Positions 29,624-47,939 of a stretch of DNA of 64,000 nucleotides are shown here, one piece after another (position 1 is the stretch's first letter; the number at the start of each line of letters is the position of its first letter). The stretch is from a candidate division CPR2 bacterium GW2011_GWC2_39_35 (GTDB taxonomy: Bacteria > Patescibacteriota > CPR2), in the NCBI GenBank assembly GCA_000995065.1, contig LBWX01000003.1:22304-86303 (forward strand), given 5' to 3'. Below the pieces are notes generated by a model. The model saw only the letters and a list, made by a program, of their open reading frames with translations. It was not told the DNA's origin and did not search any database. A program made the translations under genes and the position numbers.

Positions 29624-30640
29624 ATGATATCAATATTTGAGCGTCCTAGTTTTATAGGTATTGAGATTGGTTACAGATCAATTAAGCTTGTTGAGCTAGA
29701 AAAGAATAAGAAACAGCACAAGCTTTCAAAGGTTGGAGAAATGCCAATTCCTGCAGGAATATTGATGTCCGAAAATAAAGATGACCTAGAAATAATCTCC
29801 AAGTCGATAAAGGATCTGGTAAAGATGCTCGGCTGCAAAACAACAGATGTTGCCTGCGCCATATCATCAGGAGAAATATTTGCTGCTTCCATAGACCTTC
29901 CGTTAATGACTGCTGCCGAAGTGGAGTATGCAATGAAATGGGAAATTAAAAAACGAATTCCGGGAAAAATCGAAGATACGCATGCCAAATGGATAGTAAC
30001 CAACCAAAGAGAAAAAACCGAAGTCTTAATAGTGGCTATTCCCAAACGTATTATTAAAAGATACTTGGAAGTCATAAGTAACAGCGGTCTCATACCCGGA
30101 ATTCTAGAAATCGAACCGTTTTCATTGGCAAGATCATTAACTCAGCCAGGGCAAGGATCAATAATTAACATTCATGTCGGCTCTTCTCTCACAACTGTAA
30201 ATTTTATACAAGATGGAGCCCTAAGAATCAGCAGATATATAAAAGCTGGTGAAGAACAAATTATTGAATCCATGATAAGTTTTTCTAAATCCATAAGTCC
30301 AACGAAAGTGGCAATTGTCAATAAATATACCGTCAAAAAAAATGAATCCGAACAAAATATTAACTATAGACAAAATCCAATTTTAAGAGAAATTATCGAT
30401 GAATTTAAAAAGCTTTGTCATTTTTCGATGGAGAATGGCAAGGAAATATCTCAGGTCGTTCTTTCCGGAGAATGCGCCCTTATCCCCAATTTTCCAGAAT
30501 ATTTGGGAAACGCTTTAGAAAAAGAGATTAGCATTGCCAATACGTGGCTTAAGATAGATTGTTCATCACACGAATCTCCCGCTCAACTAAAAAAAATTAG
30601 TCCAAGATTTGCAGTGGCAGCAGGGCTTGCGCTGGCCTAA
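29624..30640 (+). CDS. pilM: Type IV pilus assembly protein PilM
   Basis: IGIEIGYRSIKLVEL actin-like start, VVLSGE, C-terminal FAVAAGLAL. Confidence 0.9.
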   Translation: MISIFERPSFIGIEIGYRSIKLVELEKNKKQHKLSKVGEMPIPAGILMSENKDDLEIISKSIKDLVKMLGCKTTDVACAISSGEIFAASIDLPLMTAAEVEYAMKWEIKKRIPGKIEDTHAKWIVTNQREKTEVLIVAIPKRIIKRYLEVISNSGLIPGILEIEPFSLARSLTQPGQGSIINIHVGSSLTTVNFIQDGALRISRYIKAGEEQIIESMISFSKSISPTKVAIVNKYTVKKNESEQNINYRQNPILREIIDEFKKLCHFSMENGKEISQVVLSGECALIPNFPEYLGNALEKEISIANTWLKIDCSSHESPAQLKKISPRFAVAAGLALA

Positions 30641-30672
30641 AAACTAGACTATTATTATATATAAGAGGCAAA

Positions 30673-31224
30673 ATGACATTAAATCTAATTCCAGAAGAAG
30701 AAGAAAAAAGGATACTTTTCTTTCCTAAAACTATTAAAACAGTCGTAATCGCTATGGTCGTCGGCGGCATCTCGATCTCTATCTTAGGATTTAGATTTGT
30801 TGCTAACAAAGGACAAGTTTACGCCTTACAAAACGAGAAAAAGTCTTTAGACGTTGAGCTTATATCACTCGATGAAGTAAGAAGTAGCTATCAATATTAT
30901 ACGAGCAGTAAAAGCAAGGACTTGCTTTCTAACCGTACTGTGTTCTCAAAATTCTACAACAATATCCAAGCTGCTACTCCATCAACAGTCTGGCTTAATA
31001 ATGTTAGTTTAAGCGAAAACGATAATTTGACAATAGATGGAAAAACTACGGGGAGATCGGGTGATGAGAAAGCTGAATATACAGAAATCTCCAAATATAC
31101 TTCATCTCTTAAAAAAGCTGGTTTTATTGATCCTAAGATTCAATCAGCATCGATAGACCAAAAGACTAAAGTTGTGACATTTAGAATAGATACCAAAATA
31201 ACAAGGGCCATGATCAGTGAGTGA
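30673..31224 (+). CDS. pilN: Type IV pilus assembly protein PilN
   Basis: LNLIP N-terminal motif, TM, coiled coil, PSTVWL. Confidence 0.85.
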   Translation: MTLNLIPEEEEKRILFFPKTIKTVVIAMVVGGISISILGFRFVANKGQVYALQNEKKSLDVELISLDEVRSSYQYYTSSKSKDLLSNRTVFSKFYNNIQAATPSTVWLNNVSLSENDNLTIDGKTTGRSGDEKAEYTEISKYTSSLKKAGFIDPKIQSASIDQKTKVVTFRIDTKITRAMISE

Positions 31225-41348: not shown

Positions 41349-41696
41349 CTAAAAATGGGGACAAAGATAGTATCGTATCAAACGACTCACTTCATATGGA
41401 TGGAGAGTTCCCTCATCCTGTGCCAAATAAGCATACCCATCGATCATTCGATCGTATATAAACTCTGCAAGGGTACCTAGACTCAAAAAAGATATGTTCT
41501 CGAATCCGGAGCTTTTTAGCTCTGGAAAGATATCTAAGAGCGAAGCATTGAATTGATCGGCACAATCTTTGCCATCGTATCTCCCGCAAAGATTTAGATC
41601 TGGTAAAGCCAGTTTCTTGTCTATATCTAGAATTTGTATTGCAACTATTTCCATTACTAGCTTCATATGATCTTCGTCGTATAGTCCGTTTATCAA
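41349..41696 (-). CDS. Hypothetical protein, remote acyl-carrier-protein-like pattern
   Basis: AGGAGG RBS; followed by a terminator hairpin at about 41302-41340. Confidence 0.6.
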   Translation of the reverse strand: MINGLYDEDHMKLVMEIVAIQILDIDKKLALPDLNLCGRYDGKDCADQFNASLLDIFPELKSSGFENISFLSLGTLAEFIYDRMIDGYAYLAQDEGTLHPYEVSRLIRYYLCPHF

Positions 41697-41937: not shown

Positions 41938-42303
41938 TTATAATAACTCAGAACACAGAGGCACGTCAGACGAATTTGCCTCTTTGTCGGCAACCGCAAC
42001 CTTCACAAAGGAAACGGCCGCTTCGCCCAAAACATCGGCAAGATTCTCGATGTCCAAAACGTTTGCGTATTGTACGTCGGAAATCTCGAGGTTACAAAAA
42101 TCTCTCGCGATTGCTGAAACAAGAACATCTTTTACAGTGTCGTCAAGAGGCATTTGTGAGTGGAATCCGAAACACTTCTTTCCGGGGAAGGCCTCGCAAT
42201 ACACCTTCTCCAAATACTTAAGAACTGATGTCCAATCGTACGTAACGCGGCCCATCAGACCTAATGTAGCCGCCCGCTTTACAACCGAAATCTCTTCTGC
42301 CAT
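41938..42303 (-). CDS. Hypothetical protein, remote acyl-carrier-protein-like C-terminal half
   Basis: GAGGAG RBS; DFCNLEISD...IENLADVL. Confidence 0.6.
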   Translation of the reverse strand: MAEEISVVKRAATLGLMGRVTYDWTSVLKYLEKVYCEAFPGKKCFGFHSQMPLDDTVKDVLVSAIARDFCNLEISDVQYANVLDIENLADVLGEAAVSFVKVAVADKEANSSDVPLCSELL

Positions 42304-42818: not shown

Positions 42819-43033
42819 TTCTGCTCCTTCTTCATCGTTTTCTGCTTCTTCTATCCTTCTCTATATAAAGGCTTTGTAGAGCCGAAATTGTATTTTTAAA
42901 ATTCTATCCTTTTCCAAACAGCCAAGTTATTATACATCAAAAACACTGACATGACAAGACTTTTTTGGACAGGATATTATCGCTTTGCATTGACATTAAA
43001 GTTTCTCCGCTAAGGCCGCATGCATATAAAAAC

Positions 43034-43597
43034 CCCCGAAAATTACACAATATAATCAAACCATATGGCCTGAAAATATATATGTAACTTTCGGGGTATA
43101 AACCTTAAGGGAAAGCCAAATCAATTATCCCAGCTTTAAAGCCAAAACCTGGTGACCAACTTTTCCTTAAGAAGAATGTGATCATTAAGCTTAAGTCAAA
43201 AAAAGCTTTTGCGGCTGTATCTTGCCTGTTCTTTTTGTAAACTTAAGCCTAATAAATCAGAGATGCCAATCTTTGTATCCAGCAAACAGCGCCGTATAAA
43301 TATATTCCAGCATCTCCGAAAGAGTTTTCAGGAAGAAGCCACGAGTCACAGTCAGATGATCTTAGTCCACATCATCCCAGCTTACTTTGCCAGCTTCTTC
43401 CTGAAGTTTATAAGTGTTGCAGGGAAAAGCCCAATTCTTCCATCCAGAGCGTGTCTCCGGTTGATTATTTACCAGCTTTTCCCTGCAAATTGAAATTGTC
43501 GTTTAACACCAATCCAGCACGGGCTAAAAGCGAATCAGAAGCGCCAGCTTGAAGGGACCAGCAAATTATGCCAAAATAATACAATCAGCGCTTCTGA
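43034..43597 (-). ncRNA. Array of about 7 stem/internal-loop/hairpin units with dual variable segments (candidate bridge-RNA/TIGR-like guide array)
   Basis: Units at 43034-43096, 43104-43171, 43185-43252, 43257-43319, 43327-43405, 43417-43488 and 43535-43597. Each has a 10-14 bp outer stem and an inner hairpin; five have ~16x16 nt loops bounded by conserved motifs. Confidence 0.8.
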
Positions 43598-43618: not shown

Positions 43619-44734
43619 TCACCTTAGATATTCTTTCCACAGATATTTGAGCAATCGCTCTAGCTGTTTGACTCTGCGCAATTTTCTTTTTTTCTCCTCA
43701 TCCGTTAAAACAGCGGCGATACCGATATTTCTGGCAATTTCTTTACCTCTTTTAGAGGTAGTGGCAAGTAAATAAAGGTATTGCCTAATCTCGCCTCTTT
43801 TCCTGGATATCCTTGGTTTCCCCTTGCTATCCATTCTGGTTACAGCCAAGCCGCAGTAGCTTCGAAGCTCGCGCCAATTTTCCCATCTGCGCCAAGCAAG
43901 AAGCCCCAAAAGAAGGACGATAGTATTTCCGCCAAAATCATCCATGGCTGGATGTAAGTCAAACTCGTTCCTTAAACGCCGGTGCGCTTCTTCCTTCAAT
44001 AGCGCTATCTCATCAAATCTTGCCAGCGACTCTTTAAGCTTTTCAGCTTCGCCTTTCCTAAAATCTATGGGGATATCTAAGGCGAGTGATTTAGCGGCCA
44101 GCTTTCTTACTTCCGGGATGAGACTACTTTTTTTCAGCGATTCCGGGAAAGGATCTTCCAGAACATGACGCATTTTTTTTGTTGTCCAGATAGGCGGTTG
44201 CGGAAGCGGAATTGGTTTATCGTTTGATCCCCCGACCTTAATAACTTCCGGAAACAAAACCACCATGCGGTCCAAGATGTCGTGCTTTATGCGCCGGCCT
44301 TCATTGGTCAGCTCAAGATACCTTTTGGCAAGCTGTACGATGAACGGCTCGTGTTCCGATGCTGTTTTGGCATGATTTAATCCGCCAAAAAACGAAAACC
44401 CCGACATACCCATGTTCAAGGCACTTTTTAGAGTCTTTTCAACCGAGCCTGCAGGGCCTCTTTTGTTTCCGTCTGTTTTGATTGAGATATAAAAAATCTC
44501 GAACCCTCTAGCTCTTAAACTGTAAGCTAGGGGTGTCGCCCATCTTTTATTCCCCACGAATACGATCCTTGAAACGCCGGACTTTTTCGCTGCCTTTTCG
44601 ACCTCCCTTAGTCCCGCATGGTCATTGGCTACTTGTATTTCTTCATCGTCTTTTACAACAGTAAAAAAGTTTCGGTGCATTGCAATCCCAATTGCGGGTG
44701 TCTTCGCCTTTTCCTTTAAAAGGACTAAAGACAT
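43619..44734 (-). CDS. IS110-family-derived protein with a degenerate RuvC (DEDD) domain and a retained Transposase_20/Nop-like C-terminal domain
   Basis: IGIAMHR (cf. IGIDVHK), IVFVGNKRW (cf. VxMEATGxYW), KTD; C-terminal LRSYCGLAV..DSKGKPRISRKRGEIRQYLY; GAAGGGA RBS before ATG 44734. Confidence 0.8.
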   Translation of the reverse strand: MSLVLLKEKAKTPAIGIAMHRNFFTVVKDDEEIQVANDHAGLREVEKAAKKSGVSRIVFVGNKRWATPLAYSLRARGFEIFYISIKTDGNKRGPAGSVEKTLKSALNMGMSGFSFFGGLNHAKTASEHEPFIVQLAKRYLELTNEGRRIKHDILDRMVVLFPEVIKVGGSNDKPIPLPQPPIWTTKKMRHVLEDPFPESLKKSSLIPEVRKLAAKSLALDIPIDFRKGEAEKLKESLARFDEIALLKEEAHRRLRNEFDLHPAMDDFGGNTIVLLLGLLAWRRWENWRELRSYCGLAVTRMDSKGKPRISRKRGEIRQYLYLLATTSKRGKEIARNIGIAAVLTDEEKKRKLRRVKQLERLLKYLWKEYLR

Positions 44735-44873
44735 AAAATCACATCCCTTCAAATTGTTAAAAAACTCTATCATTATCTAGAATCCAAGATTTGCCGAACA
44801 GTTACTTATAACACAAAATATGCTAAAAATCAAACATTTTAGCTTAAATTTGCAGCTTTATAGATTGAATAGA

Positions 44874-47708
44874 TTAGGATTTACCGACAAGAAGAAGGTC
44901 TTTTAAATATCGTCCCGTATAAGACTTGGCACTTTTAGCTACTTGCTCCGGCGTGCCGACGGCCACCACCTCGCCACCCTTGTCGCCACCTTCCGGACCA
45001 ATATCCACGATCCAATCCGCCGACTTAATAACGTCTAAGTTATGCTCAATGACCAGCACGGAATTCCCCATGTCTACAAGCTTCTGAAGCACCTTTAAGA
45101 GCTTGTTCACGTCGTCAAAATGGAGTCCGGTCGTCGGTTCGTCTAAGATATAAAGCGTTTTACCGGTCGAGCGCCTGGAAAGCTCGGTAGCAAGCTTTAC
45201 TCTTTGAGCCTCGCCTCCGGAAAGAGTGGTTGCCGGCTGACCCAGCCTCATATAGCCCAGACCTACTTCGTTTAAGGTCTCCAATTTCTTTTTTATCTGC
45301 GGTATGTTCTTAAAAAATTCCGATGCTTCCTCGATCGTCATCTCCAAAACATCAGCTATGTTTTTACCTTTATACCTTATCTCTAAGGCTTCCTTATTAT
45401 ACCTTTTTCCTTTACATTCATCGCAGGTAATATAAACATCCGGAAGAAAATGCATTTCTATCTTGATAATGCCATCGCCGCGGCAAGCCTCGCATCTTCC
45501 GCCTTTAACGTTGAAACTAAATCTTCCTTGCTTATAGCCTCGGATTCTCGCTTCCGGTGTGGCCGCAAAAAGTTCTCTGATATCTGTAAACACACCAGTG
45601 TAAGTAGCCGGATTGGACCTTGGTGTTCTGCCAATAGGCGACTGATCGATATTAATCACCTTATCCAAATTCTTAGTACCCATAATCTCCTTATGAGCGC
45701 CCGGAGCAGTTTGTGCCCTATGGAAAACCTGAGCCAATCTTTTCGCTAAAATGTCGTTAATCAGGCTCGATTTTCCGGAGCCAGAAACTCCCGAAACAAC
45801 CACAAATTTACCCAGCGGAATGCTTACCGTTACATTTTTTAGATTATGCTCTGCCGCCCCAACAATGGTAATATCCTTTCCATTCCCTTTGCGTCTTTTC
45901 TCCGGAACCCCAATTTCTTTTCTACCGGACAGATAATCGCCCGTCAAAGAATTCTTATTAGCAACAACTTCTTTTGGTGATCCCTCAGCAATAATCTTGC
46001 CGCCATGTTCTCCGGCGCCAGGACCAATATCAATTACGTGGTCGGATTCCATGATGGTCTCGGCATCATGTTCTACTACAATAACCGTATTGCCAAGATC
46101 TCTAAGCCGCTTTAAGGTATTAATAAGCCGAATGTTATCCCGCTGATGAAGGCCAATGGAAGGTTCATCTAAGATGTACAAAACTCCCATTAGAGAAGAA
46201 CCGATCTGCGTGGCCAACCGGATTCGCTGCGCCTCTCCTCCCGATAAAGTGCTAGCACCCCTATCAAGCGTTAAGTATTCGAGCCCCACGTTTATTAAAA
46301 ACTGAAGTCTTTCCTGGATTTCTTTTATGATTTGCCTCGATATATACCGCTCTTTCTCGTCTAATTTGAGACTCGAAAAGAAATCGGCTGCTTTCGATAT
46401 AGAAAGATTGGCGATCTCCATAATCGACTTTTTACCGACTTTTACCGCTAAGATTTCGGGCTTAAGACGATTTCCATGACACTGGGGACATTTATGAACC
46501 GCCATGTATTTTTCGATTTCTCGTTTAATATAGTCAGAATCAGTTTCTTTGTACCTACGTTCCAAGTTTGGGATTACGCCTTCAAAAGTAGTTTCAAACT
46601 CCGGTATTTTATCGTAGCGACTATTTCTCACTACAATTTTATCAGTGCCCGTTCCGTACAAAACTACTTGCATCGCTTCCTTGGGCAAATCACAAACCGA
46701 GGTATTAATATTAAAGTTATGATTGTCGGCAATTGATTCCAGCATTTTCATATACCAAGTCGATTTAGAAGTCGTCCTGGACCACGGTCTGATTGCCCCT
46801 TCTGCCAAAGACAATTTTTTGTTTGGAATAATTAAATCCGGATCGATCTCCAACTTCAATCCCAAACCAGTACAGTACGGGCAGGCGCCGTGCGGACTGT
46901 TAAAAGAAAAATTCCTCGGCTGGATTTCCGGCAGATTAATGCCGCAATCCAAACAAACAAAATTCTGAGAGAAAATCTGCTCTTCATCGGTATTGGCGTT
47001 CTGAATGTAGACCACCCCTTCACCAAGATTTAGAGCATTTTCGATTGATTCTGCTAAGCGCTGGGCCGATTCCGGCTCCACGATCATTCTATCTACCACC
47101 ACCTCAATATTATGTTTTTTCTGACGATCTAAACTTAATTCTTCTTCGATGTCATAAACCTTGCCATCCACCCGAACTCTTTGATAACCGGCCTTTCTTA
47201 AAGCCTCAAACACATATTTATGCTCGCCTTTTTTATCTTTAATGATCGGCGCCAAAACGTATATCCTAGTGCCATCCGTCCAAGACAAAACTTTGTCGAT
47301 GATCTGCCTAGAGGTTTGCTGCGATACTTCCTTACCGCAAAGAGGACAATGAGAGTGGCCAATTCGGGCAAACATAAGACGCAGATAATCGTAAATTTCG
47401 GTTACCGTGCCCACAGTAGATCGAGGATTTCGGCTGGTAGATTTCTGATCAATCGAAATAGCCGGCGATAAACCGTCAATTTGATCCACATCCGGCTTTT
47501 CCATAAGACCCAAGAATTGTTTTGCATAAGAAGAAAGGCTCTCGACATAGCGTCTCTGGCCTTCGGCATAAATAGTATCAAAAGCAAGTGAGGATTTTCC
47601 CGAACCGGACAGTCCGGTAATAACTACTAGCTTGTCTCGCGGAATCTCAATATCAATATTTTTTAAATTGTGCTCTCTGGCACCCCTAATAACAATTTTA
47701 TCTTGCAT
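44874..47708 (-). CDS. uvrA: Excinuclease ABC subunit A
   Basis: Two ABC cassettes ([26 protein letters not shown]), zinc fingers. Confidence 0.99.
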
Positions 47709-47792
47709 TAGTCTCCACCAATTTTATTTTTCACCTCGAAAATCCAGGTTTAAATTATAAAGCTTTTGTCAAGGTTTTTCAAGGATTTTTAT

Positions 47793-47939
47793 CTGAACCA
47801 CCCTCACTTTTTTGTCATCCCCGTGAAAACTTAGGATCCAGAAGGCTTGGGGGCATAGTGAGCTTCCTGGATTCCCGCCTGCTCGGGAATGACAACTAGA
47901 GTTATTTTTCTTGTTTTTTAAAAAGTGAGGGTGGTTCAG
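47793..47939. repeat. 20-bp perfect inverted repeat enclosing an RPE-like palindromic element (47813-47894)
   Basis: CTGAACCACCCTCACTTTTT / AAAAAGTGAGGGTGGTTCAG flank TGTCATCCCCG..GGATCCAG / CTGGATTCC..CGGGAATGACA. Confidence 0.7.

Follow-up and report, generated by a model that had tools for sequence, protein, structure and literature searches.

Introduction

The accessible portion of Faure et al. (2025, PMC12045711) describes TIGR arrays built of stem-loops, each with two spacers of 8–12 nt, and a TasR clade of CPR bacteria in which the RuvC domain is inactive. Xu et al. (2026, 10.64898/2026.09.09.750476) showed that stem-loop TasR proteins of CPR bacteria with a dead RuvC bind DNA and repress genes, and defined the TIGRFinder seeds as CCA, CGA, CTA or CAA and TG or CG around 9 (8–10) nt. 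The available text of these papers leaves room for divergent boxes (CUU/UG in PateTasR), for inner hairpins in CPR members and for spacers as long as 12 nt, and it names the origin of the system and the acquisition of guides as open questions (PMC12045711; 10.64898/2026.09.09.750476). Related work, accessible in part, is that of Guan et al. (10.64898/2026.08.11.744272) and the CazIS110 preprint (10.1101/2025.10.25.684509).

The locus described here lies in a window of 64,000 nt, by which the whole stretch of DNA that was analysed is meant. A first-pass annotation had presented it as a new principle, a claim that was given up: stem-loop dual guides beside dead-RuvC Nop proteins have been published (available text of PMC12045711; 10.64898/2026.09.09.750476), and the working principle, in which dual-guide stem-loops and a dead-RuvC Nop protein repress transcription, is already known as TIGR-Tas. 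The comparison with published TIGR subtypes was divided, in that the principle matches and the boxes, the loop length and the protein family differ.

Effector protein

The effector gene (43619–44773, minus strand) encodes a RuvC–Nop protein of 384 aa and was assigned from its open reading frame, a predicted model, fold and profile matches and residue tallies. The probable start is M14 at 44734, which gives 371 aa, the length of one other cluster member as well. The structure model (pLDDT 86.8) contains a RuvC-like domain (residues ∼24–124) without catalytic acids, a coiled coil (144–173 and 236–271) that is split by an LFPE insertion (174–235) and a C-terminal Nop/Tnp domain. Structure matches confirmed the IS110/Nop fold, and the IS110 catalytic acids are absent from the effector, so that the catalytically degenerate IS110-like gene of the earlier annotation was correctly recognized. 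The equivalents of D11 and E60 are lost, the D102/D105 region is not conserved and the serine is variable, and a DEDD motif plus catalytic serine is lacking; a β-hairpin is retained at the position of the serine loop. The catalytic acids are gone family-wide, yet the columns of G74, N75, P175, E176 and R330 are conserved. The insertion of long-form IS110 is present throughout, marked by P175 in 43 of 45 rows and E176 in 45 of 45. Judged by these residues, the family consists of RuvC–Nop proteins without the IS110 catalytic acids.

Hairpin array

Seven hairpin units of 63–79 nt each were found on the minus strand at 43034–43597, the first of which begins 21 nt past the stop codon of the gene at 43619. 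The units were delimited by folding and by parsing of the sequence, and each was compared with 200 dinucleotide shuffles. Unit 1 (43535–43597; z = −4.1) is intact, with guide A at 43585–43573 and guide B at 43558–43546, and is followed by a stemless remnant with one CUG-guide-like half (43497–43533, minus strand), which in the same shuffle test gave z = −0.2. Unit 2 (43417–43488; z = −8.0; guide A 43472–43459, guide B 43444–43432), unit 3 (43327–43405; z = −5.6; guide A 43390–43378, guide B 43352–43341), the inner hairpin of which is longer, and unit 4 (43257–43319; z = −3.6; guide A 43307–43294, guide B 43279–43268) are intact. Unit 5 (43185–43249; z = −3.8) has degenerate boxes and a retained stem, unit 6 (43103–43172; z = −2.5; guide A 43156–43144, guide B 43130–43118) is intact with UUG as its first box, and unit 7 (43034–43096; z = −8.6) is degenerate. 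Unit 7, whose loop strands are base-paired together and which precedes a run of U, may double as a terminator. The number, size and position of the units, the internal loop of roughly 16 × 16 nt in five of them (units 1–4 and 6), the degeneracy of units 5 and 7 and the remnant, placed at about 43500–43537 in the first-pass annotation, were thereby borne out, as was its preference for the strand of the gene: the region folds to −250.7 kcal mol−1 on the minus strand versus −184.1 kcal mol−1 on the plus strand, and the minus strand was better in 10/10 stretches tested.

Intact units follow the order outer stem, CUG, 12–14 nt, GG, inner hairpin, CUG, 12–13 nt, GG, outer stem, and the C of each CUG is paired to the second G of one of the GG motifs. 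The motifs UGG/UGA…[U/C/G]G proposed earlier are present, but the stem register is better served if each loop strand is written with CUG(R) on its 5′ side, (N)GG on its 3′ side and 12–14 nt between them. Both variable spacers of each tandem hairpin are thus bounded by symmetric boxes with a C–G closing pair, as in stem-loop TIGR-Tas. A pattern derived from the units gave five matches in the 1.12 Mb genome, all inside the array, and 0–2 per genome in five shuffled genomes; the five matches arise by construction and the informative part is that the genome holds no further copy. The array has no family match in Rfam. The hairpin array is a real feature.

Genome setting and family distribution

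The host, a small groundwater bacterium, has a genome of 1.12 Mb in nine contigs that is scored as 100% complete. The effector gene stands after a gene that we take from its motifs to be uvrA and before spoVS. uvrA adjoins the system in two unrelated lineages, with the system after it in the window (44874–47708) and before it at L005, G494/G625, which may be chance. Other features noted nearby are a sigma-70-like promoter of spoVS (11/12, at 42957–42929), two small open reading frames between spoVS and uvrC (41349–41696 and 41938–42303) without a match in Pfam or PADLOC, and an intergenic REP-like element of ∼100 nt (∼47790–47900), many partial copies of which occur in two genomes of the same family. 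Elsewhere in the genome, ARAGORN called tRNA-Val(AAC) and tRNA-Ile(TAT) (G000:C1:83595–83668 and C2:229105–229180); AAC and TAT anticodons are unusual in bacteria.

The protein family comprises ∼60 clusters. The gene is present in one copy in 6/6 genomes found, all of Patescibacteria, to which the named relatives of the effector also belong. Its occurrence is patchy, with 3/401 in a sample of the phylum and four clear matches among 401 in one class, and the host genome alone is clearly positive among 32 of its own class. No family member was found in the viral contigs and phage records searched.

Twelve distinct homologous loci were compared, from five further genomes and seven contigs, after removal of the duplicates of G053 and G257. 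Similar arrays beside homologous genes, on which the earlier proposal depended, were found at 11 of the 12; at nine the units are of the CUG type and precede the gene, follow it or flank it, and at the near-identical loci L021 and L022 the repeated hairpins have boxes of another kind. The exceptions to the pairing of gene and array are G257, where the gene is present and no clear unit was seen in the locus scan, G625 with an array and no gene, and G053 with the gene in two pieces. In 27 sense-strand units, tallied by a scanner that itself rewards these motifs, CUG is the first box of 26 and the second box of 18, the remaining second boxes are CAG (four), ATG (three) or other (two), and all 27 have the last GG. 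G494 and G520 have a subtype in which a G is bulged, the final motif is YG/RG and the inner stem is weak.

Several loci showed peculiarities of their own. The proteins of L021 and L022 are family members of 541–544 aa with a long N-terminal insert; their hairpin boxes are purine-rich, tRNA-Arg(CCT) adjoins them, and the second downstream unit differs in its loops between these otherwise near-identical loci. In L015/L003 (G053:C2:25500–26800) the family gene is in two frames or pieces and an identical guide unit stands both upstream and downstream. At ∼360 nt upstream of its gene, L007 carries a lone CUG/GG unit in antisense orientation. Downstream of the array of L006 lies a gene that from its motif is presumably ParB-like. 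ParB is noted beside some TasA loci in the accessible part of Faure et al. (2025, PMC12045711).

Loop replacement within kept stems

In G494 the gene is flanked on either side by homologous arrays; G625, of the same genus, lacks the gene and has a single array at that site. This orphan array (L025; G625:C9 ∼30200–30700) lies before uvrA and comprises seven hairpins; the genome, from which the gene is missing, is 100% complete. Every one of its loops differs from both G494 arrays. Over six orthologous units, identity amounted to 100/108 in the stems, 37/47 in the linkers and 23/66 in each of the two loop halves (46/132 for the loops together); with a baseline of 0.30 for unrelated loops, orthologous loops are near random. 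Across 21 hand-paired paralogous or orthologous units, which are not independent and include one identical pair from G053, stems averaged an identity of 0.85 and loops one of 0.38/0.41. The loops are thus variable while stems and boxes are kept, as the first reading of the array had it. These comparisons suggest that the loops are replaceable guides, and that they changed by replacement rather than drift, because they diverge faster than the adjoining linkers.

Relation to TIGR-Tas and IS110

The stem-loop TIGR-Tas systems of CPR bacteria (CsTasR, PateTasR) share with this one a protein made of a dead RuvC, a coiled coil and a Nop domain encoded beside the array, hairpin arrays before and after the gene, a pair of guides in each hairpin, symmetric boxes, an inner hairpin, hosts among the Patescibacteria and the lack of a partner gene. 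Unlike CsTasR and PateTasR, the effector has no GGSGD motif and no large RuvC insert and carries the LFPE insert in its coiled coil; the boxes are CUG(R)/(N)GG here and CNA/YG there. CUG and GG are separated by 11–15 nt, versus 8–10 (up to 12) nt between boxes in those systems, or by 9–13 nt if the boxes are taken to include the conserved purine and the base preceding GG (8–12 in TIGR-Tas). The expanded RuvC, the Arg at the first catalytic position and the CGA/TG boxes of the CsTasR type are likewise lacking. Dual-repeat TIGR-Tas (TaTasR, SpTasH, ParTasR) has a Nop-domain effector and tandem guides in common with this system, which differs in having no edge or loop repeats, no 36-nt period and no nuclease; the match to the TasH profile is insignificant (1–3%).

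It is unlikely, though worth serious weight, that the family is an outlying clade of stem-loop TIGR-Tas with the same mechanism and a common origin with Tas, perhaps contained in the remaining rows of the published tables. The effector is the first row of the seed alignment in Faure Data S1 and with two relatives forms rows 1–3, the source of the Tas profile, and the protein was therefore caught by the mining of Faure et al.; the unit logic, with its symmetric boxes and C–G closing pair, is shared, and the latitude for boxes, spacers and inner hairpins that the available text of the papers permits points the same way. Against this, ten family peptide motifs gave no family row among 9,182 rows of Table S1 (21,385 proteins in all), where the CPR TasR motif GGSGD occurs 235 times (cells were searched to 400 letters, and rows beyond 9,182 could hold the family). 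A TIGRFinder-type seed was found in none of 14 family locus rows, whereas a similar regular expression was positive at 4/5 CPR TasR loci of the known type. The LFPE insert is missing from 14/14 Tas rows, and the residue list of PateTasR was unmatched among the listed results for 65 proteins. Five CPR dead-TasR proteins of the published clade (L215–L219) were recovered from Patescibacteria genomes, four of them with CGA/TG-type units by regular expression. On these five proteins the family profile reached at most 11 bits. Searches of full-text literature (subscription papers and preprint supplements excepted) gave no description of the family or of CUG/GG arrays. At the level of sequence, the family is distinct from the described CPR TasR clade.

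IS110 bridge recombinases (IS621, ISCro4; long form with LFPE insert) are the best structural and profile match and have the same domain order. Profile–profile probabilities were 98.8–99.2% for long IS110, 96.4% for short IS110 and 84.5% for CPR TasR, and the alignment with long IS110 runs through the shared LFPE insertion; the gap in structural Z to TasR is only ∼2, with no long IS110 structure among the matches listed. In quick trees of the Nop core (38 and 29 of 52 rows used, with long or redundant rows dropped) the family forms one clade (96–100), which in one tree stands beside CPR TasR (SH-aLRT 90, unstarred). Approximately unbiased (AU) tests gave p = 0.43 for a grouping with long IS110 and p = 0.61 for one with Tas, the latter in keeping with the Tas-clade reading, and rejected neither. 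The domesticated IS110 derivative of the first-pass annotation is hence plausible, as the profile is nearer to long-form IS110 than to Tas, but the AU tests reject neither origin.

The family is probably a lineage separate from the described Tas clades, and we lean slightly towards its descent from long-form IS110. A single hairpin looks like a lone binding loop taken from an IS110 bridge RNA, but instead of one RNA that carries both a target and a donor loop there are up to ∼14 separate one-loop hairpins. That TIGR-like systems arose a second time, independently, comes a little short of an even chance; in this reading a long-form IS110 would have lost its active site and its bridge RNA would have become an array of one-loop guides, with a CUG/GG code of its own and longer guides that are actively rewritten in fixed stems.

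Target searches

Searches with paired guides, as proposed in the first-pass annotation, gave no target in the host genome or in viral contigs: no match exceeded shuffles in the 100%-complete host genome in four geometries, and matches in viral contigs were chance-like, in searches that short or mismatch-tolerant pairing would escape. Foreign DNA (phages or other mobile elements) is the likely target because loops turn over fast and self targets were not found.

That the guides regulate genes of the host itself, as a self-targeting repressor, is improbable. The loci occupy chromosomal sites between housekeeping genes, including tRNA-Arg, and the neighbours are presumably, from their motifs, uvrA, serS-like and mnmA–alaS-like genes. 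The absence of the family from viral contigs and phage records would also fit, and chromosomal genes can be silenced by dead TasR (Xu et al., 2026, 10.64898/2026.09.09.750476). Besides the own-genome result, what speaks against self-targeting is the loop turnover between close relatives and the outcome within the loci, where no target was found and 3/50 units beat ten shuffles, with poor scores; single units gave no match in G053 and G520 and one in G704, versus one in the control.

The loops of these units are close in length to archaeal C/D guides. A bacterial box C/D-like RNP with 11–13-nt guides pairing with RNA would have precedents in the Nop fold and dead RuvC of Nop5 (cf. Vaysset et al., PMC11213020, accessible in part), and box C/D sRNPs (Nop5/Nop56/58) also hold two guides in an internal loop. 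Such an RNP is very improbable here, as fibrillarin is absent from the genome, K-turn boxes are lacking (no RUGAUGA box), the guides are variable and not conserved, the longest antisense match of 14 guides to the host 16S/23S rRNA is 6–9 nt in place of rRNA complementarity, and single-guide matches in the genome fall in both mRNA senses.

The single copy in each of the six genomes and the many guides make a poor fit to transposition, in agreement with the guide array preferred at first reading; G625 keeps an array without a gene. Unlike in IS110, element ends were not seen, and no guide pair matches its own locus in the manner of a donor loop. Hardly any weight is left for an element that still moves, by itself or with a helper, or for an IS110 in decay whose hairpins are terminators or repeats: patchy spread, arrays duplicated on both sides of the gene at several loci and one broken gene favour it, but the catalytic acids are lost family-wide with other columns conserved, the gene is single-copy, no excision joint occurs in assembled contigs of DNA runs (where the array sequence is identical and which may be its source), and terminators have neither symmetric boxes nor loop-specific turnover.

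Proposed mechanism

We regard an RNA-guided DNA-blocking system as a reasonably probable reading of the locus, by analogy with TIGR-Tas and the target-binding loop of IS110. The array would share a transcript with the gene and be processed into single guide RNAs of 60–80 nt, one of which would be loaded by a protein dimer (2:1 protein:RNA). The two variable loops may pair with opposite strands, in adjacent halves of a DNA site of roughly 20–26 bp that would read as guide A followed by the reverse complement of guide B. The complex is predicted to bind and to block transcription or replication of foreign DNA, with no cutting and no recombination. Observed are the fold, the loss of catalytic residues, the array, its coupling to the gene across the family, the replacement of loops and the lack of a match in the host genome.

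Significance

The family bears on both questions that the TIGR-Tas papers leave open, origin and guide acquisition. It looks like a dead long-form IS110 whose TIGR-style arrays would escape the published motif seed, and orthologous hairpins within one genus keep their stems and linkers but have wholly replaced loops. If the independent origin is true, the direction would be from IS110 to array, opposite to the published TIGR-first model, and matched before-and-after arrays would be at hand for the question of guide acquisition. If the longer loops pair fully, the effector would be a compact (∼370 aa) nuclease-free DNA binder with a target longer and more specific than the 18 bp of TasR.
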